A DNA stretch of 60,824 bases, from assembly GCA_040397585.1 (NCBI GenBank), contig JBBAVS010000010.1:1-60824 (forward strand), read 5' to 3'. This document shows, one piece after another, positions 4,778 to 42,224 of the stretch. Under the pieces are notes generated by a model. That model was not told where the DNA came from. It saw only the letters and a program-made list of their open reading frames with translations, and ran no database searches. This DNA comes from Pirellulales bacterium (lineage in GTDB: Bacteria > Planctomycetota > Planctomycetia > Pirellulales > UBA1268). Within the stretch, counting starts at the first letter, position 1; each line of letters begins with the position of its first letter. A program made the translations under genes and the position numbers.

Positions 4778-7075
4778 ATGAACCGCCTCCTGTTTCATCG
4801 TGCCGCGGCCCTGCTCGCGATCGTGTCCGCCGCCGGCTCCGCAGGCAGCGCCGCGGACCGGCCGTTCGACGGCTGGCAGGCCCTGCGGGTGATCCCGCTC
4901 GAGGGGCGTGCCGACCGGCTGATCGTCGCCGATCTCGGCGCCGACGGGCGTGACGACGTGATCGTGGTTAACCCGCGGCAGGCGCGGCTCGATCTCTACC
5001 GCTGGCTGCCGGAGGCAGAACGGAAACGCGACGCCACCGGCGATCCCGATCGTCCCAACGAACTGCCGCTGGCGGCCGACTGGACCCACGGCGAGGTGCC
5101 GATCGACGAGCTGCCGGTCGATGCCGTCGCCCACGACGTCGATGGCGACGGCCGGCCGGAGCTGCTCGTGCTCACCACCCCGTCGAACCGCATCTCCATC
5201 TACACGCAGGCGGCCGACAAGCCGATCGACGCGAAGGGGGCCTGGAAGAAGACCGGCGAGTGGAACCTGCTCGCCGGCACGCCCACCGGCAAGTCGGGAT
5301 GCCTGCTCGTCCGCGACCTGTCCGGTGGCCGGCACGAGCTCCTCGTGAGCTGCGAGCAGGGCATCCAGCAGCTGCCGCTCGCCCGCGGCAGCCGGGCCCA
5401 GTGGCTCGCGCCGCGGGAGAGTCGCGGCCGCATCGACTGGTATCTCGCCGATCTCGACGGCGACGGCGCCCAGGATCTCGTGGAGTGGTCGAGTGTGGCC
5501 CGGCAGGTCGTCCGCTGGTATCCGTGCGGAGGCGACGGCAGCCTCCTTCCGGCCCAGACGCTCCACGACCAGCCGATCGAAGGGCTGCAGATCGGCTCGC
5601 GCCCCTCGGGGGCGGCCGACATCTATCTGCTCGGCGGCTCCGACAAGGGCGTACTCAGGCGCTACCAGGTCGCCGGCGGCGAGCCGACCGACGTCGGCCG
5701 GCAGGACGCGCTCCCGCTCAGCGCCGCGGCCCGCCGCAGCTGGTGCGGCATGCTGCTCGGCACGGGCAGCGACGCGACGCCGGCCATCGTCGCGGTCGAT
5801 GCGGCCCAGCCGCGGCTCCGGCTCCATCGGTTCGGCGCTGGGGGCTGGCAGGCCGAGGAGTCGTTCCCGGCGATCGGCAGCGTGAAGGCGCTCGCCGCCC
5901 CGGCCGGCGCGGCCGGCACTCTGCTCGTCTGGGCGAAGGATGCCGCCGACCTCCATCGCTGCCGCTGGGAGAACGGCCGCCTCACCTATCCGCAGCCCTG
6001 GGAACGCGAGGGCAAAGACCGCAAGATCGTGGCCCTCGACTCGGTCGGCTCGACCGTCTGGTGGGCGCAGCGGGTGGGCTCCGATCTCGATCTGTTCGTC
6101 TGGCCCGCCGACAAGCCGGAGCCGGTCGTCACCCACTATGCCGGCCTCGGCCCCAAGGTGGAGCAGGTCGTATGGCTCGGTGGCGATGCCCTGCTCGTGC
6201 AAGACGCCTACGCGACGGCTGCCAAGTTCGTGACGCTCGTCGAGGGCAAGCCTGACGTTCAGACACCGGCGCTCCTCGCCAAGGCCGATCTCTCCGAGTA
6301 CCTGCTGCTCGAGGGTGATGGCCGGCTCCGCAAGGCCCGGCTCACCGATGGCGTGCTCCAGTGGCTCGGCGACGACCTCCATCCCGTCGATCAGGTGATG
6401 CTCACGGAGGGGCAGAAGATCGCCAGCTACCTGCCGCTGCCGTCGCCCGCCGGCGCGCCGGCCGAAGCCTGGGCGCTCGAGCAAGGAGGCGGGTTCCTCC
6501 ACCGGCTGCGGGCCGACGAGGCGGGCGTGATGCGGGTTGCCGCGAGCGTCAAGCCTCCGGCCGGCACCGGCCTGCGCTGGGATCCCGTCCTCGGCCTCAT
6601 GCTCGTCGACCAAGACCGCGTGGTGCGACTCGTGGCGGGGCGACCCTGGGAACTCAAGTTGCTCGAGAGCATCGACGGCCGCATCGGCCGCCGGAGCGGC
6701 GTCAGCGAGTCGACGATCCACCGGATTCTCGCCACCGACCTCGACGGCGACCACTGCGACGACGTCGCGCTCTGCGACGACCGCAAGCACCAGCTCACCG
6801 CACTCCTCCGCCGGCCCGAGGGCCTGCAGCGGTCGGTGACCTGGAAGGTGTTCGAGGACCGCAAGTATCCCTATGACGGGGGCGAGTCGAAGGACATGGT
6901 GCCCGAACCACGGCGGATCGCGGGGCTCGATGCCGACGGCGACGGCGACCGCGACCTCGCGATGATCAGCCAGGACCGGCTGGTCGTCTATCTCTCGGCG
7001 GCCGATCCCGGCGAGCAACGCCCCGGGCCCGACGATCAGGGCCCCGCCACCCCGCACGACGAGGCCGGACGATGA
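4778..7075 (+). CDS. FG-GAP/VCBS repeat-containing secreted protein
   Basis: ATG at 4778 gives the signal peptide MNRLLFHRAAALLAIVSAAGSAGSAADRP. Repeated Ca-binding-type motifs DLGADGRDDVIVVN, DVDGDGRPELLV, DLDGDGAQDLV, DLDGDHCDDV and DADGDGDRDLA are typical of FG-GAP/VCBS beta-propeller blades. Confidence 0.8.
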   Translation: MNRLLFHRAAALLAIVSAAGSAGSAADRPFDGWQALRVIPLEGRADRLIVADLGADGRDDVIVVNPRQARLDLYRWLPEAERKRDATGDPDRPNELPLAADWTHGEVPIDELPVDAVAHDVDGDGRPELLVLTTPSNRISIYTQAADKPIDAKGAWKKTGEWNLLAGTPTGKSGCLLVRDLSGGRHELLVSCEQGIQQLPLARGSRAQWLAPRESRGRIDWYLADLDGDGAQDLVEWSSVARQVVRWYPCGGDGSLLPAQTLHDQPIEGLQIGSRPSGAADIYLLGGSDKGVLRRYQVAGGEPTDVGRQDALPLSAAARRSWCGMLLGTGSDATPAIVAVDAAQPRLRLHRFGAGGWQAEESFPAIGSVKALAAPAGAAGTLLVWAKDAADLHRCRWENGRLTYPQPWEREGKDRKIVALDSVGSTVWWAQRVGSDLDLFVWPADKPEPVVTHYAGLGPKVEQVVWLGGDALLVQDAYATAAKFVTLVEGKPDVQTPALLAKADLSEYLLLEGDGRLRKARLTDGVLQWLGDDLHPVDQVMLTEGQKIASYLPLPSPAGAPAEAWALEQGGGFLHRLRADEAGVMRVAASVKPPAGTGLRWDPVLGLMLVDQDRVVRLVAGRPWELKLLESIDGRIGRRSGVSESTIHRILATDLDGDHCDDVALCDDRKHQLTALLRRPEGLQRSVTWKVFEDRKYPYDGGESKDMVPEPRRIAGLDADGDGDRDLAMISQDRLVVYLSAADPGEQRPGPDDQGPATPHDEAGR

Positions 7076-8028
7076 AGATGCGGTGCCTGCTGCTCGTGGC
7101 CGGAATCTCGTGCGCCGCGGTCCACGCGGCCGAGATGGTGACCGTGACGGTCGTGGGCGGCAGCCGCGTGACGGCCCCGCTCCTCCGGCAGAGCGACGAC
7201 GGCGTGGTGCTCGACCTCGGCTTCGAGGCCCTGCAGATTCCGGCGAAGAAGCTGCTCGACGTCCGACCCGAGGCCCAGGCGGCCGACGCCGGCGACGCGC
7301 GGCAGTACGACATCTTCCGCACCGGCCGGCTGGAAGCCCGCGAGGTGCCCGAACTGGTGAAGCGGTTCGGCGAGGCGGTGGTGATGGTGCGGAATCCCGG
7401 CGGTCTCGGCACGGGCTTCCTGATCAGCCCCGACGGCCACCTGGTGACCAACTACCACGTGGTCGAGAACAACACCCGGATCCAGGTCACGCTGTTCCGC
7501 AAGACCGACAAGGGCTTCGAGAAGCACGAGTATCGCAAGGTGAAGATCGTCGCCCTCCAGCCGCTCCGCGACCTCGCCATCCTCCAGCTCGACCCTGAGG
7601 AGACGAAGGGGCGGCTGCCGGAGCCCGTCGTGATCAACGACCGAGACGATCTCCGCGTCGGTGACCTGGTGTTCGCGATCGGTAACCCGGCCGGCCTGGA
7701 GCGGAGCGTGACGCAGGGGATCGTCAGCAGCACCACGCGAACGATCGACCAGATGCGGCTCATCCAGACCGACGCGGCCATCAATCCGGGCAACAGCGGC
7801 GGGCCGATCTTCAATGCCCGCGGCGAGGTGGTCGGCGTCGCCTGCGCGGGTGCGGCCGTGTTCGAGGGCCTGGCCTTCGGCATCCCTGCCAACGAACTGA
7901 TCGACTTCCTCGTCCATCGCGACACGTATCCCTACGACGAGTCGCAGCCCCAGAACGGCGTCACCTACCTGCCTCCGCCCCATCAGCCCGGTGGGCCGGC
8001 GGCGGAAGGGGCGAAGGCCACGCCGTAG
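7072..8028 (+). CDS. Trypsin-like (S1C/HtrA-type) serine protease without a PDZ domain
   Basis: Signal peptide, then the catalytic-triad context TNYHVV (His), DLAILQL (Asp) and NPGNSGGPIF (Ser). The start overlaps the upstream stop by 4 bp (ATGA), implying translational coupling. Confidence 0.9.
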   Translation: MKMRCLLLVAGISCAAVHAAEMVTVTVVGGSRVTAPLLRQSDDGVVLDLGFEALQIPAKKLLDVRPEAQAADAGDARQYDIFRTGRLEAREVPELVKRFGEAVVMVRNPGGLGTGFLISPDGHLVTNYHVVENNTRIQVTLFRKTDKGFEKHEYRKVKIVALQPLRDLAILQLDPEETKGRLPEPVVINDRDDLRVGDLVFAIGNPAGLERSVTQGIVSSTTRTIDQMRLIQTDAAINPGNSGGPIFNARGEVVGVACAGAAVFEGLAFGIPANELIDFLVHRDTYPYDESQPQNGVTYLPPPHQPGGPAAEGAKATP

Positions 8029-8082
8029 CGGAACCGTCCGGCGTCGCCGGCCAGGGATCTCTCCATCGCGAAAGGATTCGTC

Positions 8083-10080
8083 ATGCGCCTCTGCGCCCGC
8101 CGGCTCCCGTGTGTCGTCGTCGTGATCGCCGCCGCCCGCCTCGCCGGCGCCGCCGAGGTGCGGCCCAGCTGGGAGTGTCTGCCGGAGGACACGGCGGCGA
8201 TGGTGCGGATGCCCCAGCCGGCCGAGTTTCTCGAGGCCGTCCGCGGACAGACGAAGTTCGGCGCGGTGGCGCTGGCTGCACCGCGGCTGAAAGCGTCCTG
8301 GAGCATGCTCGTCGATGCGGCGCGGAAAGACGCCCGGGGAGCCACCCTGCCCGACTTCGACGAGCAGCTCGCCACGTATGGGCTCGAACCGAGCGACCTG
8401 CAGGCTGCGTTTCGCGACGACCTGGGCGCCGGAGTCGTCGTCCGCCGCCGCGACGACGGCCTGCCGCCCCTGGTGATGGCGCTGGCGTGGCTGGAGCCGG
8501 GCGCGGAGCCGGCAGCGCGGCTGGTCACCGCGATGCAGCGGCGCGTCGAGGAGCGGAACGCCGCCGGCGAACCCGACGCACCGAAGCGGATCGACATCGA
8601 CGTCGCCGGCCACGAGGTGCTCTGGATGGTGGAGCCCATCCTGACGGTGGACACCGAGGGGCTCGACGTCGACGCCCAGGGCGAAGCGTTCGATGCCGAC
8701 GAGTTCAAGAAGCGGCTCGCCGAGCGGGTCGAGGCCCTGCGCGAGCGGATCCGCAACGGCCGGTTCGTGCAGGTCGGCGAGACGCACACCTTCCTGGCGC
8801 GGCTGGGTAGCCGCCTGCTGGCCGGTCAGACGATTCCCGATCCGGCCGCCGGCGCCCGCCGCGGCGCCGACGGAGACCGCGATTTCGCGGTGGAAAGCGG
8901 TGCCGAGGAGGCCCGCAGGGCGTTCGAGCAGTTCCTCGCGGCCCACGCGGAGTCGGGCCCGGCCCCGCTGGCCGAGGTGCTCGCCGTTCCCGGCATGGCG
9001 GCGGCGCTGCCGCCGGGCGTTCCGCTCCTCGACGTGGTCGTCGATCCGCGCGTCCTCGTGAACGCCTACGGCCACGAGCCCACCAAGGCGGCGCTGGGGA
9101 TGATCGGGGCCGACACGCTGGGGCCGGTCGCCTGGCGACAAACCCTCGACGATGGCCGCTACCGTGGCGGGCTGTTCGCCTCGCTGCCGGCCCCGCGGAG
9201 GAGCCTGATGCGCCTCCTCGACCAGGAGTGCGACGCCGCGGAGGTGCCGTCGTTCGTGACTCGCGAGGCGATCGACTTCTCGCAGATCTCGCTCGATCTC
9301 GGCAAGGCCTACGAGACCGTCAAGGAATATGCGGTGGCCACCGGTGGCGAGCAGACGGCGAACATGTTCACCGCGGTCGAGATGCAGGCCCAGGGGTGGC
9401 TGGGCGTCGAACTCCCGCGGGTGCTCGCATCGCTGGGCACACGCCACTGGCTGGTGAGCTACCCGCCGAGGGTCGCGGAGGCCTTCGCGGAGGCGCGGCA
9501 GGCACGCGGCCGCGCCGGCGGCCAGCAGGCGCGGCAGATCGCCGACCGCTTGGCCGTGGTCTGGCAGATCAGCGACGACGGTCCGCTGGGCAAGATCCTG
9601 CAGCGGCTCGCCGGCATGGCCGGCGGCGAACTCCAGGAGGAGCAGGGCTTTCGCGGTGTCCGCCTCCCCGACGGACCGGCCGTGTTCCTCGGACAGGATC
9701 ACCTCGTGGTCGGCATCGGCGCCGACTCCCTCGAGAAGACGCTCACCGCGATCCGCAACCCGCCCGCCGGCGAGGCATCGCTCCGCGAGAGCGATGTGCC
9801 CCGCCGGGCCGCCGAGCTGCTCGCACTGGAACCGGCGCGGCTGTTCGGCCTCAGCGACAGTTCGCGGTCGGGCGGCACGCTCGGCGTGCTCCGCGAGATG
9901 CTGCGGTCGCTCGAGCCGGAGGACGTCGAGGAGTCGTACCGCGACCTGCTCGCGACCGCGCAGAAACTGCTGCCGAGTGACGACGAGATGGAGGGCATGT
10001 TCGGCGTCGGCGCCACCACGCTCCGCGCCGACGACGACGGCGTGTCGTTTCAGACCGCCTGGGAAATGCCGGCGCCGTAG
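8083..10080 (+). CDS. Hypothetical secreted protein (665 aa), third gene of the FG-GAP/protease operon
   Basis: Signal-peptide-like N-terminus MRLCARRLPCVVVVIAAARLAGAAEV and coding-like composition throughout. Same strand, 54 bp after the protease gene. No domain recognised by eye. Confidence 0.65.
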   Translation: MRLCARRLPCVVVVIAAARLAGAAEVRPSWECLPEDTAAMVRMPQPAEFLEAVRGQTKFGAVALAAPRLKASWSMLVDAARKDARGATLPDFDEQLATYGLEPSDLQAAFRDDLGAGVVVRRRDDGLPPLVMALAWLEPGAEPAARLVTAMQRRVEERNAAGEPDAPKRIDIDVAGHEVLWMVEPILTVDTEGLDVDAQGEAFDADEFKKRLAERVEALRERIRNGRFVQVGETHTFLARLGSRLLAGQTIPDPAAGARRGADGDRDFAVESGAEEARRAFEQFLAAHAESGPAPLAEVLAVPGMAAALPPGVPLLDVVVDPRVLVNAYGHEPTKAALGMIGADTLGPVAWRQTLDDGRYRGGLFASLPAPRRSLMRLLDQECDAAEVPSFVTREAIDFSQISLDLGKAYETVKEYAVATGGEQTANMFTAVEMQAQGWLGVELPRVLASLGTRHWLVSYPPRVAEAFAEARQARGRAGGQQARQIADRLAVVWQISDDGPLGKILQRLAGMAGGELQEEQGFRGVRLPDGPAVFLGQDHLVVGIGADSLEKTLTAIRNPPAGEASLRESDVPRRAAELLALEPARLFGLSDSSRSGGTLGVLREMLRSLEPEDVEESYRDLLATAQKLLPSDDEMEGMFGVGATTLRADDDGVSFQTAWEMPAP

Positions 10081-10142: not shown

Positions 10143-10574
10143 CCCCGCAGCCGGCCGGAGACATGCTCGGCGCCGGCGGCACTTGTGAGTTCGAGGCTCT
10201 GACGGAATGTCCGCGCCCGGCGTCCACAAGTGTCACCGTCTTCTGCGCGTGCCTCCGATCCGGCTGCTGCCCCCACACCATGAACTCAGCGAGGGGCTGA
10301 CCGTACCCCGAGAGCCGGGCTATGGGCGGGCACCGATCCGCCGCAGGCGGATTGGTCGGCGGAGCCAGGATGGCGAAGCGCAGCGGACATGCAGAGAGCG
10401 TCGGGCAGGATGCCCGACGCGAACGTCCGGCGACGGGGTATGGTCAGCCCCGAGCGGCGCAGCGCACAGGTTGAAAACCTGTGCCCACGTGGCGACGGGG
10501 CATGGGCAGCCCCGAGCGGCGCGGCGGCACCAGGCGGGGATGGGATCCCGCAGGTTGAAAACCTGCGGCCACTT
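10143..10574 (+). repeat. Intergenic modular repeat, copy A1 (long form)
   Basis: Shares an identical 39-mer (10143-10181 = 27416-27454) and several long near-identical blocks with 27416-27841. Shares its core with 19229-19466 and 24563-24812. Contains hairpins at 10399-10419, 10464-10484 and 10548-10568. Fills the gap between convergent genes and ends 12 nt from the sbcC stop. Confidence 0.9.
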
Positions 10575-18070: not shown

Positions 18071-18146
18071 CCACACGCGCGGGCGAGCCGGCCGCCATCC
18101 CCAGCGCTCACGCGATGGGGCTTCCTGAACCCGCTGCGACGGCGAC

Positions 18147-19109: not shown

Positions 19110-19228
19110 GAATCCCTCCCGTGTCTCGTCGCGGGCAGCCTCCGGCCCTTCGCCGGCGCCGCCCGCAGCATCGGCATTATCGGCACCACCGGCCAGAAAA
19201 TGCAGCCTCAGTGATCGGCACAGGGAGC

Positions 19229-19466
19229 GCGGGGCCGCCCGTGCCCCGAGAGCCGGCGTTTGTTTCCTCCGCGAGTCAGGATGACGAAGCGGAGGAAACA
19301 CCGAGTGAGCGGAGGGCAGGATGCCCGCAGCGAGCGTCCGGCGACGGGGCGCGGGCGGCCCCGAGCGGTGGGGCGGGCCACACTTTCCGCAGGTTGAAAA
19401 CCTGCGGCCACTTAAAACCTGCGGCCACTTGAAGACCTGCGGCCACTGGCGATTGGGCTTCCTGAG
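19229..19466 (+). repeat. Intergenic modular repeat, copy B1 (short form)
   Basis: Collinear with the reverse complement of 24563-24812. Has an 11-bp-stem hairpin GTTTCCTCCGC...GCGGAGGAAAC (19262-19299), a 9-bp-stem hairpin (19387-19407), a 17-nt tandem triplet (19397-19447), and the terminal motif GCGATTGGGCTTCCTGAG. Ends 11 nt from the stop of the 19478-20134 gene. Confidence 0.9.
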
Positions 19467-20237: not shown

Positions 20238-23075
20238 GTGCCCGACCACGTGCACCGCCGCCTCGATGCGGCCGGGCTCAATCATCGCCCCGTCCTGCTC
20301 TCGGTGGGCACCGACGTGAGCTTGTCGGGGGAGCCCGCCGCGGAGTGGCTCGTGGTCACGCCCGACCACCTGGCCGCCACCGACGGCCACGGCACGCTCC
20401 GCGCCGTGCCCTGGCGGGGCGTGGAGCGGGTCCGGACGACGTCCGGGGTCGGCGGCGGCTCGCTGCAGGTCCGCACCGACGGCATCTGGATCGACCTCGT
20501 CCGCTACTCCAACGCCCTGGCCACGAGGTTCCACAAGGTGTCGCGGGCGCTCGACCGCAGCCGCGAGCGGCTCGCGGCCGGCCTGCCTGGCGAGCTCGAG
20601 GGCCTCGAGGGATCGCTCGACCCGCCCGCCTGCCCGTCGTGCGGCCTGCGGCTCCAGACGGCGGAAGACGCCTGCCCGCGGTGCCTCCAGAAGGGTCAGA
20701 TCCTCCGCCGGGTCGGCGGCCTGCTGGCCCCCTACGCCCGCGGCTCGGTGTTCCTCTGCCTGCTCACGTTCGTCGGGGTCGTCGCGGAACTGGTGCCGCC
20801 GAAGCTCCAGCAATACATGGTGGACGACATCCTCTCCGCCAAGGCCGGTGAGGTTGGCGGCACCACGCCCGACTTCAAGACAGCCCTCCTTGTGGTGGTG
20901 CTCGCGCTCGCCTTCTCCCGCGTGCTGCTCGCCGTGGTGGGCGTGATCAAGGGGCGGCTGACGTCCGCGATCGGCTCGGGGATCACCTCGGCCTTGCGGG
21001 AGGAGATGGTCCAGAAGCTCCAGGGCCTGTCGGTCGCCTACTACGACCGCCACCAGGTGGGCTCGATGATCAGCCGCGTGGCGCACGACAGCGAGGTGCT
21101 CCACGGCCTCATGCACCAGATCACGGGCGGCTTCCTCCTGCAGATCGTGCAGCTCGTCGCCGTCGGCGCGATGCTGGTCTGGATCAACCCCAAGCTCGCC
21201 CTGTTCACGCTGATCCCGGTGCCGCTGGTGATCCTCGGCTCCTGGATCTTCTGGCGGCACGTCTACCCGCGGCACTACCGGCTCTGGGATGCGGCCAGCA
21301 AGCAGATGACCACGCTCTCGGGGATGCTCTCCGGCATCCGCGTCGTCAAAGCCTTCGCCCAGGAATCCCGCGAACTCGACCGCTTCCACGCCGCCAGCGA
21401 CCACCTCCGCCGCTGGCGGCAGTGGGTGGAACACACCAACACCACCTACGCCGCGTCGATGCAGATCGTGTTCAGCCTGGGCGGCCTGATCGTCTGGTAC
21501 GTCGGTGGCCGCGACGTGATCGGCGGCAGCATGTCGCTCGGCCAGCTGATCGCGTTCCTCGCCTACCTGGCGATGTTCTACGCGCCGCTCGGGGCGCTCT
21601 CCAACTTCACCACCTGGCTCACCAGCTTCCTCTCCGGCAGCAAGCGGGTGCTGGAGCTGCTCGACACGCCTGCGCTGGTCACGGAGCCCGCGCATCCGGA
21701 AGCCTGGAACGACGTCCGCGGCGCGATCCGGTTCGCCAACGTGACCTTCGGCTACGACCGCAACCAGCCCGTGCTTCACGACGTGTCGTTCGAGGTGCAG
21801 CCAGGGGAGATGATCGGGATCGTCGGCCGGTCGGGCTCCGGCAAGAGCACGCTGGTGAACCTCCTGGCCCGGTTCCACGACGTCCAGGAGGGCTCGATCA
21901 CGGTCGATGGCCACGACATCCGGCAGCTCTCGTCCCACGACCTCCGCGAGCGGCTCGGGATCGTGTTCCAGGATTCCTTCCTGTTTCGCGGCACCATCTG
22001 GCGAAACCTCTCCTTCGGCCGGCCGCAGGCGACGATCGAGGAGGGGCTCACCGCCGCCAAGGCCGCCGGCGCCCACGACTTCCTCTGCCGCCAGCCGCTG
22101 GCCTATGAGACGCTCCTCGGCGAGCACGGTGCGGGGCTCTCCGGCGGCGAGAAGCAGCGGCTCTCGATCGCCCGCACGCTCCTCTACGACCCGCGCATCC
22201 TCGTGCTCGACGAGGCCACGAGCAACATCGACGCCGAAGCGGAGAAGGCGATCCAGGAGGCGCTCGCCGTGCTCGTCCGCGGACGGACGACGATCGCGAT
22301 CGCCCACCGGCTCTCCACGCTCCGCAACGCCGACCGGATCCTGGCCTTCGACCGCGGCCGGCTGGTGGAGCAGGGCACCCATGCCGAACTGCTCGCCGCC
22401 GACGGCGTGTACGCCCGGCTCGTGCGGATCCAGACGCAGGTCACGAAGCAGCCCACGATCGACACGCTGATTGCCGAGGAGGAGGCCCCGGCGGACGCGC
22501 CGGCCAAATCGGCGGACGCGACGGCCAAGTCAGCGGACGCGCCGGCCGAGCCAGCCTCCACGACGGCCGCGAGCATCACCTGGCTCGATCCCGCCCGGCA
22601 CCGGTTCACGATCGGCTCCCAGGAGCGGATCGAGATGGGTTTGCCCGATCAAGACCCCGCATCGGGCATCTTCATCATCCGCACGTTCCCGGCCACGCAT
22701 CCCGACGAGTATCTCTCGGTCCGCGGCTGGGACGAGCACGGCGACGAGGTGGAACTGGGCATGATCCGCAGGCTCGACGCCTGGCCGGAGGCCGACCGCA
22801 CGGTGATCCACGCCGCCCTGCAGCGGCGATCGCTGATCCGCGAGGTGCGCCGCGTGCACGAGGTGCGGCTCATCCACGGCTACCTCGACTTCGACGTCGA
22901 CACCGACGTGGGGCGGCGGCGATTCACGACCCGCTGGACCCAGGGTCAGGCCTTCGACTTCGGCACCGGCGGCAAGATGCTCGTGGACACCGACGAGAAC
23001 CGCTGGGTCGTACCCCGGATCGATGACCTACCAACGGCCGACCGGGAGCGGTTTCTGCAGTATGTCTACTGGTGA
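20238..23075 (+). CDS. ABC exporter (TMD-NBD half-transporter) with an N-terminal PH-like plus zinc-ribbon module and a C-terminal DUF1854-like domain
   Basis: Six-TM ABCB-type domain, Walker [10 protein letters not shown], signature LSGGEKQR and Walker [13 protein letters not shown]...CPRC lies before TM1. The C-terminal 170 aa ([18 protein letters not shown]...[21 protein letters not shown]...[32 protein letters not shown]) resemble DUF1854. The start is uncertain: ATG 20133 would overlap the divergent gene start at 20134, so GTG 20238 or 20250 is more plausible. Confidence 0.88.
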
Positions 23076-24467: not shown

Positions 24468-24491
24468 ACCCGCGGTTCACCAAGGCATGAC

Positions 24492-24538
24492 GAAACCCCG
24501 GCCCGGATCGGCCCCGCCGATCCGGGCCGGTTCGTTTC
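24492..24538. terminator. Strong GC hairpin, candidate bidirectional terminator
   Basis: Perfect 15-bp stem CCGGCCCGGATCGGC (24498-24512) / GCCGATCCGGGCCGG (24516-24530) with a 3-nt loop, flanked by GAAAC...GTTTC and followed by TTCGTTTCC. It starts 25 nt after the DUF937 gene stop. Confidence 0.6.
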
Positions 24539-24562: not shown

Positions 24563-24812
24563 CTCAGGAAGCCCAATCGCGTAAGCGATGGGGATCTCGT
24601 GGCCCGCCCCACCGCTCGGGGCTGCCCATGCCCGTCGCCACGTGGCCGCAGGTTTGCAACCTGCGGTGCCCCACCGCTCGGGGCTGCCCATGCCCGTCGC
24701 CGGACGCTCGCTGCGGGCATCCTGCCCTGCGCTCGCTCGGTGTTTCCTCCGCTTCGCCATCCTGGCTCGCGGAGGAAACAAACGCCGGCTCCCGGGCACG
24801 GGCAGCCCCGAG
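24563..24812 (-). repeat. Intergenic modular repeat, copy B2 (short form, inverted)
   Basis: The reverse complement aligns along its whole length with 19229-19466. It has the same 11-bp-stem hairpin (24742-24779), a 9-bp-stem hairpin CCGCAGGTT-TGC-AACCTGCGG (24646-24666), a duplicated GGCGACGGGCATGGGCAGCCCCGAGCGG unit, and the terminal GCGATTGGGCTTCCTGAG motif. Confidence 0.9.
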
Positions 24813-24845
24813 CTCGTCGCGCGAAAGGCTTGAGCAGCAGCTCGG

Positions 24846-27415: not shown

Positions 27416-27841
27416 CCCCGCAGCCGGCCGGAGACATGCTCGGCGCCGGCGGCAATGAGGTCTCCGACCCACCTGCGGTGTGTGAGTTCAAGGCGCCAAC
27501 GGAATGTCGATGTCCGGCGTCCACAAGTGTCACCGGCTTCTGCGCGTGCCTCCGATCCGGCTGCTCGCCGTCAAGAGGGGCAAGCCATTGGAAAGGATCC
27601 GCGAGGGACTGACCGTGCCCCACCCACCAGGAATGAACTCAGCGAGGGGCTGACCGTGCCCCGGGAGCCGGCCTCGCTGGCCAGCGCAGCCAGGATGGCG
27701 AAGCGCAGCCAGCGCGGAGTGAGCGGATGCCACGATGGCATCCGCGAACGTCCGGCGACGGGGTATGGTCAGTCCCGAGCGGCGCAGCGCACAGGTTGAA
27801 AACCTGTGCCCACGTGGCGACGGGGCATGGTCAGTCCCGAG
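27416..27841 (+). repeat. Intergenic modular repeat, copy A2 (long form)
   Basis: See copy A1. It has the identical 39-mer, conserved blocks interrupted by 27-nt and about 56-nt insertions relative to A1, and hairpins at 27723-27745 and 27789-27809. It ends 7 nt from the acs stop. Confidence 0.9.
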
Positions 27842-27848
27842 CCCCCGA

Positions 27849-32185: not shown

Positions 32186-33973
32186 ATGAGCCTTCTCGCC
32201 GTCCTCCTGCCGAGCGCCGCGGTGCTGCTGCTGGCCTACCGGCTCTACGGGAGCCTCCTCGCCCGGCTCTTCCGCCTCGATCCCGCCGCCCCCACGCCCG
32301 CCGTCACGCTCCGCGACGACGTGGATTACGAGCCGATCCCGCCGCAGCTCCTCCTCGGCCAGCACTTCTCCGCGATTGCCGCGGCGGGGCCGATCGTGGG
32401 GCCGATCCTGGCAGGCGTGGCGTTCGGCTGGGTGCCCGCGCTGCTCTGGATCCTGGCGGGCAGCATCCTGATCGGGGGCGTGCACGACTTCGTGGCGCTC
32501 GTGGCCTCGGTGCGGCACAAGGCCCGCTCGATCGCCGAGGTGGTCCGCGATCACATGAGCCGCCGGGCCTACGTGCTCTTCCTGGCGTTCGTCTGGATCG
32601 CGCTGGTCTACATCATCGTGGCCTTCACCGACATCACCGCCCAGAGCTTCGTCGGCCGGCAGGTGCTCGAGAACGGCGAGAGCGTGTCGGGCGGCGGCAT
32701 CGCCACCTCGAGCCTGCTGTACCTCATGCTGCCGGTGATCATGGGCTTCTGCATGCGGTTCGCCCGGATGCCGCTCTGGCTGGCGACGGCCGTGTTCCTG
32801 CCGCTGGTGGGGCTCGCGATCTGGGGGGGCCAGAAGATTCCGTTCGATCTCGCCACGACGTTCGGCACCACCGACGTCACGGCCCAGAAGATCTGGGGCG
32901 TGCTCCTGCTGGCCTACTGCCTGGTGGCGGCGATGGTGCCGATGTGGTTGCTGCTCCAGCCCCGCGGCCACCTCGGCGGCTGCTTCCTCTACGTGGCCCT
33001 CGCCGGGGCGGCGATCGGCCTGGTGGCCAGCGACACCTCGCTCGCCGGCGTGTTCGGCGGCCGGTCCACCATCCGCTACCCGGCCTTCACCGGCTGGCAG
33101 GCCGCCAACGGCCAGCATCTCGTCCCCATGCTCTTCATCACGATCGCCTGCGGAGCCTGCTCCGGCTTCCACTCGCTGATCGCCTCGGGGACGACAAGCA
33201 AGCAGCTCCGCCGCGAGACCGACGCTCGTGCCATCGGCTACGGCACGATGCTGCTGGAGGCGATGGTGGCGGTGGTCAGCCTGTGCTGCGTGATGGTGCT
33301 CACCCGCGACGATCCGCTCACGAAGCAGTCGCCGAACTTCATCTACGCCCTGGGGATGGGGCAGTTCCTGGAGATCCTCGGCGTGCCCGCCACGATCGGC
33401 GTGTCCTTCGCGCTCATGGCCTTCACCACCTTCGTCTACGACACGCTCGACGTCTGCACCAGACTCGGCCGCTACATCGTGCAGGAGCTCACGGGGCTTG
33501 GCGGCCGGGCCGGAGGCTGGATCGGCACGGCGCTCACCGCGGGTGTGCCGCTCGTGTTCCTGCTCCGTCCCAACCTCGACGCCCAGGGCAATCCCGTGCC
33601 CGCCTGGAAGATGTTCTGGAATCTCTTTGGGGCGAGCAACCAGTTGCTGGCGGCGCTCACGCTCCTGGGCGTGACCGTGTGGCTCTGGCGGACGCGGCGG
33701 GAATCCTGGGTCTGGCTCGTGACCGGGCTGCCGACGGCGTTCATGTATGCCATGAGCACCTGGGCCCTGGTCACGCTCACGCTGCCGCGGTTTCGCGGCC
33801 CCGCCGGCTGGATCCTCCCCGCCGATCCGGTCCCCTGGGCCGGCCTCGTGCTCCTGGCTCTGGCGGCGGTCATGCTCGTCGAAGCGATCCGCGCCCTCGG
33901 CGACGCAGCAGGGCCGCGATCACCCCGCTCGATCCGAGCAGCGCCCACGTCGTGGGCTCCGGCACCGAGATGA
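32186..33973 (+). CDS. cstA: Carbon starvation protein A family transporter
   Basis: MSLLAVLLPSAAVLLLAYRLYG..., GQHFSAIAAAGPIVGPILA and ACGACSGFHSLIASGTTSKQL are CstA signatures, and the protein is polytopic. The last ~35 codons overlap the convergent PEP-CTERM gene. Confidence 0.9.
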   Translation: MSLLAVLLPSAAVLLLAYRLYGSLLARLFRLDPAAPTPAVTLRDDVDYEPIPPQLLLGQHFSAIAAAGPIVGPILAGVAFGWVPALLWILAGSILIGGVHDFVALVASVRHKARSIAEVVRDHMSRRAYVLFLAFVWIALVYIIVAFTDITAQSFVGRQVLENGESVSGGGIATSSLLYLMLPVIMGFCMRFARMPLWLATAVFLPLVGLAIWGGQKIPFDLATTFGTTDVTAQKIWGVLLLAYCLVAAMVPMWLLLQPRGHLGGCFLYVALAGAAIGLVASDTSLAGVFGGRSTIRYPAFTGWQAANGQHLVPMLFITIACGACSGFHSLIASGTTSKQLRRETDARAIGYGTMLLEAMVAVVSLCCVMVLTRDDPLTKQSPNFIYALGMGQFLEILGVPATIGVSFALMAFTTFVYDTLDVCTRLGRYIVQELTGLGGRAGGWIGTALTAGVPLVFLLRPNLDAQGNPVPAWKMFWNLFGASNQLLAALTLLGVTVWLWRTRRESWVWLVTGLPTAFMYAMSTWALVTLTLPRFRGPAGWILPADPVPWAGLVLLALAAVMLVEAIRALGDAAGPRSPRSIRAAPTSWAPAPR

Positions 33974-36900
33974 GGTTGACGAACGAGCCGCCGGGGAGGG
34001 GTGACGTCACGTTCACACCCGCCGTCGTCGACGAGTAGGCGATCCGCCAGGTGTTCGACCCCACGACGAACGTGTCGCCGTCGGCCAGCGACGTGCCGCC
34101 GTAGGAGAACAGCCCGCTGCCCGCCAGCGGCCCGCCGTAGTTGATCATGCTGAAGATCATGCCGGGGCTGACCGGAATATCGGGTCCGAGATCGGCCACG
34201 CTCAGCGGCACCGTGCCACTGAGCGACAGCGTGCTGGCCATCCGCAGCAGGTCGGCCGTCAGGAGGTTCGACTCGTACTGGAAGCCGAGCGTCGCCCCGT
34301 TCGAGAAGCTGACCGCCGAACCGGTCGTGAGCGTGGCGATGCCCGCCCCGGGCGCGAGCGTGCCGGCCGCATTGACGGTCACCGCGCCGCCGATGGTCCC
34401 GGACCCACCAAGCACGCCGCCGTTGACCACGAACGGGGCCACCACGCTGCCGCTGTTGCCGTTGATGAGCAGCGTGCCGGCCTCGACCAGTGTCGTACCG
34501 CCATAGGCGTTGCTGCCGCCGAGGATCCATTGCCCCGCCCCCGACTTGGTGATCCCGATCAGGCTGCCCGATCCGGAGTTCACGATCGGACCGGCGAGGG
34601 TGTTGGCGGCCGTGTTGCTGCCGCCGAGTCGCAGCGTCCGCTCCAACGCCAGCGAGAAGACGGCGTTGGTCGATACGGTCGCGATGGCCGCGTTGCTCAG
34701 CGTGTACTGATTGCCGCTGATCCCCACGATCGTGGTCCCCGCCGGCAGGGCGGTCGAGGTCACCGTCAGGCCCACCGCGGTGCCGGGAGCGACGTTTGAC
34801 GTGTTCACCGCCACGGCACTGCCACTGGTGAAGTTGAGGTTGAAGTTGGCGGTGTCGATCGCCCGCACCGTGCCCGTGAAGGTCAGCGGGGCCGCCCCCG
34901 ACGAGTCGATCGTGCCCCCCGTGGAGTCCACTTGGATCAGCCGGTTCGTGGCCTGGGTCGTCGCCCCGGTGTAGCGAAGCGTGCCGCTCGTGCCCTGCCC
35001 GGAGAACGTGAACGCCGTGCCCGATCCGAGGGCGCCTGCCACGCCCGAATGAGTGAGATTGGCCACGTCGAGCACCCCGTCGAGCACGGCTGGCGTGAGC
35101 GTGAACGTGCTGGCGGTCCCGGTCAGCGACCACGTGCCGGTCCCGTACTTGTTGATCCCGCTGCTCGACCCGGTCACGGCCAGCACCGGCCCGGCGACGA
35201 CGCCGTTGCCCGAGCCGCCGATGAACAGTGGCCGGCTACCGCCGGCGGTGTTGCTGATCGTGCCGGTGAGCGTGAGCAGGCCGCCGTCCGACTGCACGAT
35301 GATGCCGCTGCCCCCGGTGGACCCGACGTTCAGCGTGCCGGACAGCGTGGTGACCCCTTGGAGATTCTGGATCGTCGGCGAGCCGCCGATCGTGGGCGGG
35401 TTGGCCGATGCGAAGTTCGCGAACGAGTTGGCGAAGGTGTTCGTGCCCGCCACGTTGAGCTGCAGCGACCCGGTGCTCGCGCCCGCCTTGGGCAGCGAGA
35501 TCGTGCTGCTCGGCGACAGGGCCGAGGCCGCGTCGATCCGCAGGATGCCGCCGCCGTTCGAGACCGTGGTGGTGCCCGAGTAGGTGCTGGTGCCCGCGAG
35601 GATCGTCGTCGCCGTGCCCGACTTGGTGAGGCCGCCCGTGCCGCCATTGCCGGTGATGTTGCCGGTGAAGGTGGCGGCGACGTTGTTGAGCGTGGTGCCG
35701 GCGACGCTGCCGGCCGCAAACGACAGCGAGGTCGGAATCGTGCCCGTCACGTTCGTGAAGTTGATCGGGCCGGCCGACGCCCCGGTGATCGACGCCTGAC
35801 CCGACCCGAGCCCGGTGGCGGCCAGCACGTTCACCGTGCCCGACCCGAGCTGCTGGAATGGGCCGCTGAACGTGTTCGCCGACGCGGTGTTGGAAAGCGT
35901 CAGGTTGGCGCCGCCGGTCTTGACCACCGTTCCGGCGCCCGACATGGAGCCCGAGACGGTGATCGCGGCCCCGGCATCGGTGCTGAGGTTGAGCGTGCCG
36001 CTGACGGCCAAGGGCCCGCCGAGGTTGAACGCCACGCTATTGCCCGACTGGATCGTGGCACTGCCGGTCACGGTGAACGGCTCCGGAATGGTCGCGGAGT
36101 TGGCACTCGCGAGCAGGTAGATCCGCGAACCGTCCTGGAGCGTGGTGCCGACCGTCGCGTCGCCGAGGCCGTACGGGTTGGTCAGGTACATCAGCGCGCC
36201 GGGCGCGAGCGTCACGGTACCCGGGATCGTGTTGCTGCCGCTCACCGCCAGCGGAGCCGTGCCGGTGTAGACGAGGCCTCCCGTGCCCGAAATCACGCCG
36301 CCGGCCAGGGCGCTCGAGCCCGCGTTCCCGAACGTGAGCGTCTTGTCGCCCAGCGCCAGGGTTCCGCCTGCCGCCACGCTGAGCGACGAGGCCGTCAGGC
36401 TCGTTCCCGGGAGGCCGGTGAGGTCGAGCGTGCCCGAGCCCGAGGCACTGAGGCCGCTCGCCGGCGCGATCCCGCCGGCGCCGCCAAAGTTCAAGACACC
36501 GCCCGCCACCGAGGTGATCCCGGTGTAGCTGTTGGACGCGGTGAGCGTGAGCGTTCCCGAGCCGAGCTTGATCAGGCCGAGCGCGTTGGCGCCGCCGTTG
36601 GGATCGGCGAGCGCCGACCCGTAGGTCAGGCTGCCGCCGGCGTTGCTGGTGTCGATACCGATGAAGGACCCGGGCAGGAAGCCGGACGTGCCCGTGCCGA
36701 GCGCCGCGAGCGTATCCACGTCGGACGTGGTGAACTCGCCGGCACCGCCGACGTTGAGGGCCAGGCCGCCGCCGCTGCCGGTGATCAGGTTGGCGGCCGT
36801 CCAGCTGCCGGTGTTGCCCGCGTAGAGCGCCGATGGCGCGGCGAACTGGAGGACGCCGCCGTTGATCCGAGTCGCCCCGGTGTAGAGGCTCGTCCCGGAG

Positions 36901-38405
36901 AGCACCTGCACGCCCGGCGCCGCCGCCACCGCCAGCGAGGTGCCGGTCTTCACCAGTTCCATCCCGGCGGCCCCGTTGCCGAGGTTGCCCGCATACGTGA
37001 ACGTGCTGCCGGGTTGCGGGTTGAGCACGAGCGAGGTGATCGTGCCGTAGCCGACGGGGCTGAAGGCGCCGTTCCCCACGAGGCCGCCGAGCGTCACGGT
37101 CGTGCCGGACGCGAGCTGGAGCGTGCCCGAGCCGGTCGTGTCGAAGCCGCTGGTCGGCATCGCGGTCGCGTTGCCGAACACCAGCAGGCCGGCGGACACC
37201 TTCTCGGTGCCCGTGAAAGTGCTCGTGCCGGTGAAGGTGTGCGTGCCGCCCGAGATCACGAGGTTCACCTTCTTCGACGTGCTGCTGAAGTCGGCGATCG
37301 TGCCGCTGAACGCCGACGTGCCCGTGAGCGTGAGGATCGAGTCGCTCGTGGTCGACGTGTTGTAGATCCGGCCGCTGCCGGTGGTGCCGGTGCGAAGCAG
37401 GCCGAAGAGCGTCTGGTTGTTGCCCGCCAGGTCGAAGACGCTGTTGTTGTTGTTGAGGTTCTGGAAGTTGAACCTGGCACCGGTCGCGATGCCGTTGGTC
37501 GCGCCGACCCGGACCGTGCCCTCGCCCAGATCGACGGTGGAGTAGGAGCCGCTCCCCGCGAGGATGAAGGTTCCGAGCCGGAGGTTCAGGTTGACGGTCG
37601 AGTTGATCGGCCCGGTGAACAGCATCGCGCCGCTGCTCGCCGACGCCATCGAGATGTGCCCGCCTCCCGTGGCCGACGTCAGGATCGTAACGGTGCCCGA
37701 AACGGTGGCGGTGCCGGAGGACACGTTGTAGTGCAGGGCGCCGGCCCCCGAGAGGCCGTGCGTGCCGGTGATCGTCACGTTGTTGGCCAGCGTCATCGAC
37801 GTGCCGTTGAGCAACAGCCGGGGAATCTGGTTGCCCGCGGTGCCGTTGATGACGATCGGGCCCGAACTGGCCGCCGACCCGTTGTTGACGATCAGCGCGC
37901 CCGCGTTGATGGTGGTGGTGCCGCTGTAGGTGTTCGCGCCGGACAGGGTGAGGGACCCTGTGCCCTGCTTCGAGAATCCGGTTCCCGTGATGACCGAGCC
38001 GATCGTGCTGTTGCCCACAGACACGCTGACAACAGGCTGCGTGCTCGCGTTGGCCGCGAGCGTGAGCGTGCTGCTCGTCACCAGGCCGTTGGACGCGGAG
38101 AACGTGAGGCCGTTGGTGAACACCGTCTCCGCGAGCGTGGCCGTGCTGCTCAGCGTGTTGAAGATCGCGACGTTGGTGGAGCCCGACGTCGAGCCCCACG
38201 GCGTGCCGGAGGCCGCGGCCCAGTTCGCCGTGCCGGTGGACCACGACGCGTTGGCCGACGCCCCGCCGCTCCAGGTGAGGGGGGCCGCCGACGCCGAGTC
38301 GCCCTGGCTCAGGCAGGCGGCCAGCGCGGCGCATGCGAGCAGTGTGCGGAGGGGGCAGAGGCCCCGTGAACGGTCAGACGCAACCCTCGGGAGAGCGGGG
38401 GGCAT
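33870..38405 (-). CDS. Giant autotransporter-associated beta-strand repeat (PATR) protein with a PEP-CTERM anchor
   Basis: ATG at 38405 gives a signal peptide (…LLACAALAACLSQGDSASAAPLTW). About 1500 aa of G/T/S/A-rich repeats follow, with recurring LTLSGANTYSGTTTINAGAL-type units. The C-terminus is VPEPTTWALLGSSGVIAALLRRRGR (PEP-CTERM). Confidence 0.85.
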   Translation of the reverse strand: MPPALPRVASDRSRGLCPLRTLLACAALAACLSQGDSASAAPLTWSGGASANASWSTGTANWAAASGTPWGSTSGSTNVAIFNTLSSTATLAETVFTNGLTFSASNGLVTSSTLTLAANASTQPVVSVSVGNSTIGSVITGTGFSKQGTGSLTLSGANTYSGTTTINAGALIVNNGSAASSGPIVINGTAGNQIPRLLLNGTSMTLANNVTITGTHGLSGAGALHYNVSSGTATVSGTVTILTSATGGGHISMASASSGAMLFTGPINSTVNLNLRLGTFILAGSGSYSTVDLGEGTVRVGATNGIATGARFNFQNLNNNNSVFDLAGNNQTLFGLLRTGTTGSGRIYNTSTTSDSILTLTGTSAFSGTIADFSSTSKKVNLVISGGTHTFTGTSTFTGTEKVSAGLLVFGNATAMPTSGFDTTGSGTLQLASGTTVTLGGLVGNGAFSPVGYGTITSLVLNPQPGSTFTYAGNLGNGAAGMELVKTGTSLAVAAAPGVQVLSGTSLYTGATRINGGVLQFAAPSALYAGNTGSWTAANLITGSGGGLALNVGGAGEFTTSDVDTLAALGTGTSGFLPGSFIGIDTSNAGGSLTYGSALADPNGGANALGLIKLGSGTLTLTASNSYTGITSVAGGVLNFGGAGGIAPASGLSASGSGTLDLTGLPGTSLTASSLSVAAGGTLALGDKTLTFGNAGSSALAGGVISGTGGLVYTGTAPLAVSGSNTIPGTVTLAPGALMYLTNPYGLGDATVGTTLQDGSRIYLLASANSATIPEPFTVTGSATIQSGNSVAFNLGGPLAVSGTLNLSTDAGAAITVSGSMSGAGTVVKTGGANLTLSNTASANTFSGPFQQLGSGTVNVLAATGLGSGQASITGASAGPINFTNVTGTIPTSLSFAAGSVAGTTLNNVAATFTGNITGNGGTGGLTKSGTATTILAGTSTYSGTTTVSNGGGILRIDAASALSPSSTISLPKAGASTGSLQLNVAGTNTFANSFANFASANPPTIGGSPTIQNLQGVTTLSGTLNVGSTGGSGIIVQSDGGLLTLTGTISNTAGGSRPLFIGGSGNGVVAGPVLAVTGSSSGINKYGTGTWSLTGTASTFTLTPAVLDGVLDVANLTHSGVAGALGSGTAFTFSGQGTSGTLRYTGATTQATNRLIQVDSTGGTIDSSGAAPLTFTGTVRAIDTANFNLNFTSGSAVAVNTSNVAPGTAVGLTVTSTALPAGTTIVGISGNQYTLSNAAIATVSTNAVFSLALERTLRLGGSNTAANTLAGPIVNSGSGSLIGITKSGAGQWILGGSNAYGGTTLVEAGTLLINGNSGSVVAPFVVNGGVLGGSGTIGGAVTVNAAGTLAPGAGIATLTTGSAVSFSNGATLGFQYESNLLTADLLRMASTLSLSGTVPLSVADLGPDIPVSPGMIFSMINYGGPLAGSGLFSYGGTSLADGDTFVVGSNTWRIAYSSTTAGVNVTSPLPGGSFVNLISVPEPTTWALLGSSGVIAALLRRRGRGSLRRA

Positions 38406-42106: not shown

Positions 42107-42141
42107 GGGGCGAACCGTCACGGGACGGACGGGACGAGGAG

Positions 42142-42224
42142 TGCCGGAGGTGGGACTTGAACCCACACGCCCTTGCGGGCAACGGATTTTGAGTCCGCCG
42201 CGTCTGCCATTCCGCCACTCCGGC
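42142..42224 (-). tRNA. tRNA-Leu (anticodon CAA)
   Basis: The minus-strand sequence GCCGGAGTGGCGGAATGGCAGACGCGGCGGACTCAAAATCCGTTGCCCGCAAGGGCGTGTGGGTTCAAGTCCCACCTCCGGCA folds by hand into a cloverleaf. It has a 7-bp acceptor stem, the anticodon loop CT-CAA-AA, a long variable arm GCCC/GGGC and the T-arm GTGGG-TTCAAGT-CCCAC. CCA is not encoded. Confidence 0.95.

Follow-up and report, generated by a model that had tools for sequence, protein, structure and literature searches.

The window analysed here, a stretch of 60,824 nucleotides of contig JBBAVS010000010.1 from a Pirellulales bacterium (GCA_040397585.1), carries four full copies of an intergenic repeat whose conserved core folds into a three-way junction. 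We propose, with a probability of roughly 0.55, that this repeat is a non-autonomous DNA element similar to REPs (repetitive extragenic palindromes), REPINs (REP doublets forming hairpins) and BIMEs (bacterial interspersed mosaic elements), and that an enzyme encoded at another place, probably one of the Y1 HUH transposases, handles it as single-stranded DNA (ssDNA). The REP-like kind of element is already known; what is most likely new is the conserved unit, a 150-nt three-helix junction. An earlier account of this DNA (hereafter the sequence-only reading) had left three options side by side, a 3'-untranslated region (UTR) or antisense RNA, a REP/BIME-like element and a non-autonomous mobile element. 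The evidence favours a REP/BIME-like, non-autonomous element because of the read depth of the family, its mosaics with REP hairpins, its dimers and arrays, the differing contents of orthologous spacers and an orientation that is linked to GC skew.

A search pattern made of two conserved core blocks (CAGGATGRCGAAGCG-N38-46-CGTCCGGCGAC) matches the window at 10366, 19277 and 27691 on the + strand and at 24696-24764 on the - strand, while 100 dinucleotide-preserving shuffles of the window yield no match. A covariance model, built from the alignment of the element and run over the window and the collected loci, finds exactly four full cores in the window and no other score above 22 bits:

10277..10466, + strand: core A1 (covariance model, 103-108 bits)
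19215..19377, + strand: core B1 (covariance model, 129.5 bits)
24665..24825, - strand: core B2, inverted (covariance model, 127.3 bits)
27630..27791, + strand: core A2 (covariance model, 148.7 bits)

The positions of the four full copies that the sequence-only reading had placed in 61 kb are thereby confirmed by pattern and model, and the identical 39-mer, the long blocks shared by A1 and A2 and the hairpins that it had described are all present. B1 and B2 form an inverted pair with 95% identity over 104 nt (inverted repeat I1 of the repeat finding), and repeat finding recovered the same repeat families in the window as the pattern search.

The alignment comprises the 4 window copies and 105 copies from other genomes (109 sequences). 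The unit common to all aligned copies is the ~150-nt core, the 250-430-nt blocks being this core joined to short modules. The core reads GCGAGGGGCTGCCCGTGCCCCG-n-GAGCCGG / CGT-ATGCCGCC-AA-GCGC-A-GCC-AGGAT-GGC-GAA-GCGC-n-GGCGGCAT-C-CG / A / GT-GA-GCGnAGGGC-AGGAT-GCCCGnAGC-GA-AC / GT / CCGGC-GA-CGGGGCACGGGCAGCCCCGAGC, and folds into a tight three-way junction from which two hairpins (P2 and P3) arise and which a long stem (P1) closes. P1 consists of two ~28-nt inverted arms, which are terminal inverted repeats of the core, hence the earlier statement that the element has no such repeats is wrong for the core. The tips of P2 and P3 are GGA triloops closed by A-T, and tandem mismatches of the 5'-GA/5'-GA type occupy three fixed places. 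The parts of the A1 core are the following:

10289-10310, + strand: P1 5' arm
10333-10355, + strand: P2 insertion hairpin
~10364-10376, + strand: P2 tip, GCC-AGGAT-GGC
10398-10420, + strand: P3
10429-10455, + strand: P1 3' arm

The variant with an extra hairpin inside P2 is present in A1 and in loci L012, L072 and L073 (L and a number label a locus collected around a copy), and a 122-nt variant without P2 was found in locus L115. L115 (4864-5122) and L114 (5830-6499) belong to sister assemblies of the same organism, in which the pyrH-frr spacer just past the end of the window holds more copies in sense orientation.

A covariance model and a covariation test, both of which the sequence-only reading had suggested as checks, show that the stems co-vary. 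Standard pairs fill 88.8% of 5867 alignment cells, a share that drops to 31-41% if the 3' partners are displaced by 1-3 columns. Changes on both sides are seen at 41 of the 55 pairs (548 cells in the 109-sequence alignment), and none of 500 shuffles reached the observed values. The two blocks of the search pattern are invariant by construction, therefore the loci were searched again with the covariance model, which gave 137 good matches, 33 of them without the seed pattern. These 33 copies retain AGCGCAG-SCAGGATGSC-GAAGCG at the P2 tip and the junction strands CGAGYGAGCG and GCGARCGTCCGGCGA, and a compensatory swap from GCC/GGC to GGC/GCC occurs in the P2 tip among them. The P2 triloop is GGA in 133 of 136 copies; at P3, 97 of 133 loops read GGA and 31 (23%) read CGA. 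The fold is under selection: its stems co-vary while its loops and junction are conserved.

The fold prefers one strand. In 104 of 108 copies the + strand of the element (the orientation of A1) folds more stably than the opposite strand, with a mean advantage of 8.9 kcal/mol, and the covariance scores of the window cores are 102-149 bits on the + strand versus 13-22 bits on the - strand. Among the non-standard stem cells, G.A/A.G outnumber C.T/T.C by 394 to 34, and among wobbles GU-type cells outnumber A.C-type cells by 191 to 86. At the outer end of P1, GA/GA was found 48 times, TC/GA 16 times, GA/TC 10 times and TC/TC never. Folded as DNA, the two strands reach -63.5 kcal/mol (z = -11; this is the B2 core as ssDNA) and -59.3 kcal/mol (z = -9), each of them much more stable than shuffled sequence. 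Very stable DNA hairpins feature GNA triloops, the GCGAAGC motif and tandem sheared G.A pairs, all of which also occur in RNA and do not decide between the two.

The exact pattern gave at least 113 matches in species-representative genomes, to which freshwater metagenomes of the JGI (Joint Genome Institute) add at least 120 others, thus the copies beyond the window that the sequence-only reading had proposed to look for do exist. The genome matches listed come from metagenome-assembled genomes (MAGs) of Planctomycetota or Pirellulales (some mislabelled Kuenenia), several per MAG, with the exception of one match in Paracoccus (attributed to chance) and one contig labelled Chitinophagaceae. Viral contigs searched with the pattern gave no match, and a literature search with the motif strings found no paper containing them. 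The window organism is present in lake metagenomes, and in four lake metagenomes the depth of the core is 50-400x that of the flanking single-copy genes (e.g. 7000-8400 vs 35-40, contig depth being approximate only). This depth, together with the four copies in 61 kb, points to several hundred copies per genome. Many matches lie at contig ends, as expected because repeats break assemblies; the loci stem from MAGs and metagenomes, where repeats collapse in assembly, and the seed pattern biases the sample toward one part of the family. Copies are ~81% identical within one MAG and ~77% identical between MAGs, and for 25 of 83 copies the nearest relative resides in the same MAG (3 expected). Judged by these identities and nearest-relative counts, the family is old, and its subfamilies are common to several species.

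With genes called by a home-made simple codon-model caller trained on the data, not one of 244 copies falls within a gene. The spacers between neighbouring genes, classed by the orientation of those genes in two sets of loci (set 2 consisting of independent metagenome loci), were distributed as follows:

Convergent spacers: set 1, 29 with core and 46 without; set 2, 31 with core and 62 without
Co-directional spacers: set 1, 39 with core and 295 without; set 2, 42 with core and 348 without
Divergent spacers: set 1, 3 with core and 75 without; set 2, 5 with core and 85 without

The core is enriched between convergent genes and rare between divergent ones (p = 2e-10 in set 1 and p = 5e-9 in set 2), and it lies mostly downstream of genes. 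The position at gene 3' ends, noticed by the sequence-only reading on four copies, is therefore statistically supported in both locus sets. The same account held that the element is always antisense to the gene that it abuts; this is true of the four window copies and does not extend to a rule, as co-directional spacers hold 45 copies in sense and 40 in antisense orientation to the genes. The fixed antisense orientation in the window is a small-sample effect. The 105 nearest complete neighbour proteins carry 133 Pfam families, none of them more than three times, and are ordinary housekeeping proteins. In the window, the neighbours named earlier were confirmed (SbcC-like, Acs, i.e. acetyl-CoA synthetase, DUF1080, i.e. 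3-keto-disaccharide hydrolase, and DUF937), and the distances of 12, 7 and 11 nt to stop codons hold, as does that of 95 nt with a terminator hairpin in between. The other flanks of the window copies are a peptidase U32 gene and a gene for a pyridoxal phosphate (PLP)-dependent enzyme. The terminator hairpin is a feature outside the repeat family:

24487..24530, + strand: hairpin of the DUF937 gene that resembles an intrinsic terminator, with TTCGTTTCC after a G+C-rich stem

The orientation of the element tracks chromosomal GC skew and not the direction of transcription. When the loci were oriented by the element, with the element and 300 nt on each side masked, the GC skew of the flanks on the element + strand was -0.014 (54 loci negative, 22 positive; t = -3.9). 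The skew was -0.0149 for genes on the strand of the element and -0.0108 for those on the other strand (36 vs 14 loci), and the fact that both gene strands have the same sign of skew implies a property of the strand rather than a coding-strand effect. The metagenome loci replicated this result (-0.0225 and -0.0102; 40 vs 12 loci, t = -5.2; 50 vs 19 when all genes are taken, p = 2e-4). In the window, 10 of 12 5-kb bins show negative skew on the + strand, which bears three of the four cores. GC skew serves here only as a proxy for the direction of replication. In most bacteria the G-rich strand is the leading strand, as is assumed here. If this assumption holds, the GT[AG]G-tagged strand of the REP hairpins described below would lie on the lagging-strand template, the arrangement of the active strand of IS200/IS605 elements (PMC6006769).

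Outside their cores, the copies are mosaics of accessory modules, which in the window are arranged as follows:

10145..10268, + strand: A-module of A1, an optional ~125-nt 5' extension that is a same-orientation module in other loci; it consists of hairpin 1 (10145-10179), hairpin 2 (10184-10238, CACTTGTG...CACAAGTG) and a tail (10240-10268), all on the + strand
10465..10488, - strand: GTGG-tagged REP hairpin (GTGGGCACAGGTTTTCAACCTGTG), with its tag opposite to the core + strand
10491..10517, + strand: solo extra P1 3' arm (GGCGACGGGGCATGGGCAGCCCCGAGC; family D3)
10549..10572, - strand: another GTGG-tagged REP hairpin, at 14 nt from the stop codon of sbcC
18099..18128, + strand: solo module iii (CCCCAGCGCTCACGCGATGGGGCTTCCTGA), a hairpin with a CTTCCTGA tail, between convergent genes
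19388..19465, - strand: tail of B1, made of a GTGG-tagged REP hairpin (19388-19411), two additional REP half-repeats (19414-19446) and one half of module iii (19449-19465, read on the + strand)
24564..24665, - strand: tail of B2, made of module iii (24564-24593), one solo P1 3' arm (24614-24639) and one REP hairpin (24642-24665) whose GTGG tag is on the + strand
27418..27565, + strand: A-module of A2
27601..27622, + strand: solo extra P1 5' arm
27790..27842, + strand: tail of A2, made of a REP hairpin (27790-27813) whose GTGG tag is on the - strand and one solo P1 3' arm (27816-27842), at 7 nt from the stop codon of acs

A1 and A2 are long because they include the A-module. L001, L077, L108 and L087 likewise have this module 5' of the core and in the same orientation, and its hairpin 1 occurs alone in L033 and L026. 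The stretch 18111-18128, formerly taken for a terminal fragment of the element, is not a piece of the core and belongs to the complete solo module iii listed above; this module (consensus CCCCATCGCTTACGCGATTGGGCTTCCTGA) recurs in many loci, often in tandem. The REP hairpin has the form GTGG-CCGCAGGTT-TTC-AACCTGCGG in its five window copies, and a GTAG version exists in other genomes. The GT[AG]G tag sits at the foot of the accessory hairpins and is absent from the arms of the 150-nt core; in 42 of 50 cases it is carried by the strand opposite to the core + strand, i.e. the two are locked in orientation. Adjacent cores are mostly inverted, with their 5' ends abutting (16 of 29 pairs), tandem arrays also occur, and the P1 arms are likewise found as solo and tandem units.

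Several arrangements in the collected loci were observed besides. Three cores stand in tandem in L047 (702-1457, period ~297 nt) and in L171 (646-1304, period ~248 nt), inverted core dimers bracket gene-containing segments of 4.4-5 kb in L022 (434-757 and 5737-6060) and L027 (2902-3271 and 7645-8000), and a further short module, CCCGCGGCCTTACGGCCGGTCGGCTT, which is absent from the window, lies beside cores in L026, L059, L060, L071 and L083.

The contents of one convergent spacer, bounded by the same four flanking genes in five MAGs, differ from genome to genome: it holds a core (L070), a diverged core in the opposite orientation (L005), other modules only (L083 and L093) or an extra gene (L073). 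This implies that copies are gained and lost. Direct repeats at the ends of P1 are not found beyond the level of shuffled pairs, in agreement with the earlier statement that there is no target-site duplication; the ends were taken as those of P1, the true ends of the mobile unit being uncertain. The frr-pyrH spacer of the sister assemblies L114 and L115 was considered as a pair of filled and empty alleles and rejected, the difference being a scaffold gap or a collapse of tandem copies.

On these grounds we propose that the family colonised the genomes of a freshwater clade of Planctomycetota (Pirellulales and relatives). The core fold would be the recognition substrate of a trans-acting enzyme that works on single-stranded DNA at the replication fork. 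This enzyme, most likely a Y1 HUH transposase of the RAYT (REP-associated tyrosine transposase) or "class 3" type, would be encoded once elsewhere in the genome, and would copy or move the element with no duplication of the target. Selection would purge the copies that land in genes or promoters, leaving survivors at gene 3' ends; there the hairpin, being very stable, may incidentally terminate or protect transcripts. The strand placement of the core may have its cause in selection that disfavours stable hairpins on the lagging-strand template.

The closest known relatives in kind are the REP, BIME and REPIN elements that work with RAYT (TnpA-REP). Shared with them are the high copy number of extragenic palindromes, the mosaics of motifs, the occurrence as singles, inverted dimers and clusters, the enrichment in convergent and co-directional spacers, the G.T pairs in stems and the GT[AG]G-tagged hairpins, which here are modules. 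GTAG REPs and many Y1 transposase genes have been reported in Planctomycetes, and a GTGG variant in Opitutus terrae, in the PVC (Planctomycetes-Verrucomicrobia-Chlamydiae) group (PMC3733652). Class 3 Y1 HUH genes are found mainly in Planctomycetes, and are flanked by atypical high-copy secondary structures, known mostly from Planctomycetes and Acidobacteria, ~600 of them in one genome (Quentin et al. 2018, PMC6006769). These structures resemble the present family in occurring in Planctomycetes, in high copy number and in being REPtron-like rather than IS-like; compared by description only, they differ in having the 5' foot CnGA where GCGA precedes the arm hairpins here, and they flank class 3 genes, none of which was found in our loci. 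With IS200/IS605 elements and the gene-less PATEs (palindrome-associated transposable elements) the family shares the lack of target duplication, and it would share the recognition of single-stranded hairpins and, as far as GC skew is a proxy for replication, an orientation linked to replication-related asymmetry; however, distinct left and right ends, tnpA and tnpB are missing here, the better-folding strand lies on the C-rich strand and the bias is only ~70%. ERIC/IRU, Correia (NEMIS), BOX and RUP are similar in length (100-200 nt), in being long imperfect intergenic palindromes and in being co-transcribed with neighbouring genes; BOX is modular, and ERIC has variants with internal insertions comparable to the P2 insertion. 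They belong to other phyla and show no sequence similarity to the family, which moreover lacks a target duplication (that of Correia is TA) and has stronger covariation and strand asymmetry.

A number of observations weigh against a REP-like element moved by such an enzyme. The core, with its 150 nt and three helices, exceeds every described REP by far in size and complexity: these are 20-40-nt hairpins or simple hairpin doublets, in contrast to a three-way junction with conserved loops, and the core arms carry neither the GTAG tag nor the CnGA foot of the class 3 structures. At ~70%, the bias in orientation is moderate, and neighbouring groups that share a contig agree in 17 cases and disagree in 13. 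The better-folding + strand of the core resides on the C-rich strand, which is not the lagging-strand template if the G-rich strand is leading, so that only the co-oriented REP tags fit the strand paradigm of IS200/IS605. A clean pair of filled and empty alleles was not obtained. The identity of only ~81% among copies within a genome gives no sign of a recent burst. Finally, no Y1/RAYT-like gene was found beside ~260 copies (~1.7 Mb in all, of which ~0.7 Mb are genome loci, taken together with the window, and 0.98 Mb are metagenome loci) by tblastn with an approximate E. coli RayT query and by HUH...Y regular expressions, a search made in the loci only. An open reading frame (ORF) of the class 3 type (NHVH...YVxxEQ) was likewise absent from the loci, the clustering of 606 predicted neighbour proteins revealed no recurrent family, and a Pfam scan of the 105 nearest neighbour proteins gave no transposase family among those listed; around the window copies, too, no transposase was found, as had been stated before. 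Since no Y1/RAYT-like gene was found near any copy, the enzyme is purely one that we infer.

A possible, though rather unlikely, alternative is that the element is a structured RNA that acts after transcription, either as a 3'-UTR hairpin directed against 3'-5' exonucleases or transcription, or as a decoy of a CsrA-like protein. CAGGAUG is the CsrA-binding repeat motif of the CsrB/RsmZ type. Both hairpin tips read CAGGAUG, therefore hundreds of transcribed copies could titrate a CsrA-like protein, and CsrA orthologues have been reported in Planctomycetes (PMC4682653). The covariation and the tolerance of G.U pairs are as in a functional RNA, and the clear strand preference, the GGA triloops (P2 more than P3, as counted above), the copies placed directly after stop codons and the presence of element sequences in several lake metatranscriptomes (as unstranded contigs) are in line with this alternative. 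The orientation of the copies, however, is not tied to transcription, as the nearly equal numbers of sense and antisense copies demonstrate, and it is linked to GC skew. Around A1 there is no promoter- or terminator-like site, and no U-tract follows P1. The ratio of element to gene depth is 10-50x in RNA contigs, thus not above the 50-400x of DNA, which gives no sign of a discrete abundant RNA (the contigs being unstranded, this evidence is weak). A contact that depends on GGA would be lost with the CGA loop of 23% of the P3 hairpins. An RNA gene would also not usually come in hundreds of copies, inverted dimers and arrays: the CsrA-sequestering RNAs of the CsrB/RsmZ type resemble the element in carrying CAGGAUG in hairpin loops (two per unit here), but they are encoded by one to a few small RNA genes with promoter and terminator, whereas the present units are promoter-less, number in the hundreds and lie in either orientation, and about a quarter of their P3 loops lack GGA.

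Comparison with known RNA families gave no assignment. The Rfam scan of the window at gathering score returned only a tRNA and no family for the element, and at permissive E-values the best sub-threshold matches of A1 and B1 reached 18-20 bits and the others 12-18 bits, which we take as chance. One of these candidates, an exonuclease-resistant RNA of tick-borne flaviviruses matching P3 and the P1 3' arm (window 10398-10480, + strand), was rejected as a chance match (20 bits, E = 0.07, cut-off 46.5). A hammerhead-like junction was rejected by eye, CGAGUGA not being CUGANGA and the pair 15.1-16.1 being wrong; a kink-turn at the tandem G.A sites was rejected as the bulges are of 0-2 nt and not 3; and the likeness to domain V of group II introns (GAGCCGGCGUAUGCC) was dismissed in view of the lack of a 34-nt hairpin and of an Rfam match.

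That the family represents a new class of structured single-stranded nucleic acid with a function of its own seems improbable to us; the function would be that of an ssDNA junction for an uncharacterised Planctomycete HUH enzyme, or of several hundred 3'-UTR GGA decoys across the genome that buffer a CsrA-like regulator.

We consider it quite improbable that the element is a classical MITE (a miniature transposable element with inverted repeats), i.e. an internally deleted insertion sequence with the P1 arms as terminal inverted repeats recognised by a DDE transposase on double-stranded ends. The size of ~150 nt, the ~28-nt inverted arms, the high copy number, the intergenic location and the presence/absence differences between genomes are those of a MITE, but target-site duplication is not above the shuffled control, no transposase gene was found near the ~260 copies, the arms also occur solo and in tandem, the strand asymmetry is strong, and P2 and P3 co-vary with conserved loops, which a double-stranded DNA binding site does not need. 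A site-specific recombination site folded as ssDNA, similar to the attC sites of integrons (which also follow gene 3' ends and conserve structure over sequence), would explain the conserved, strand-specific fold and the position directly after stop codons, but is hardly credible, as the neighbours are housekeeping genes in both orientations and not cassette arrays, copies are also sense and between convergent genes, R/L-box core sites (GTTRRRY) are missing from the ends and there is no integrase nearby.

The window has some further features. An ORF of 665 amino acids (aa; 8083-10080, + strand) with good coding statistics, in whose 3' flank A1 is situated, matches no Pfam family at E <= 1e-5. 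A tRNA-Leu with the anticodon CAA (42141-42224, - strand) is the sole Rfam or ARAGORN match in the window. Three tandem 21-nt units (GCGGACGCGCCGGCCAAATCG-like, a 7-residue repeat) are found at 22491-22568, inside an ABC-transporter/DUF1854 gene (20238-23075), and a very large gene of ~1500 aa (33870-38405, - strand) contains internal repeats ~700-1300 nt apart (family D8).

As a REP-like element, the family would offer the class 3 Y1 HUH proteins of Planctomycetes, which are uncharacterised, a candidate substrate, and it is a natural test case of how single-strand-specific enzymes read complex DNA folds. It breaks the assemblies of abundant freshwater Planctomycetes, and a model of the family helps their binning and annotation. 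Were the core a new kind of ssDNA junction, such a multi-helix "REP" would extend what HUH enzymes are known to read; if the fold works as RNA, several hundred structured 3' UTRs per genome would exist in a phylum with almost no known RNA biology.

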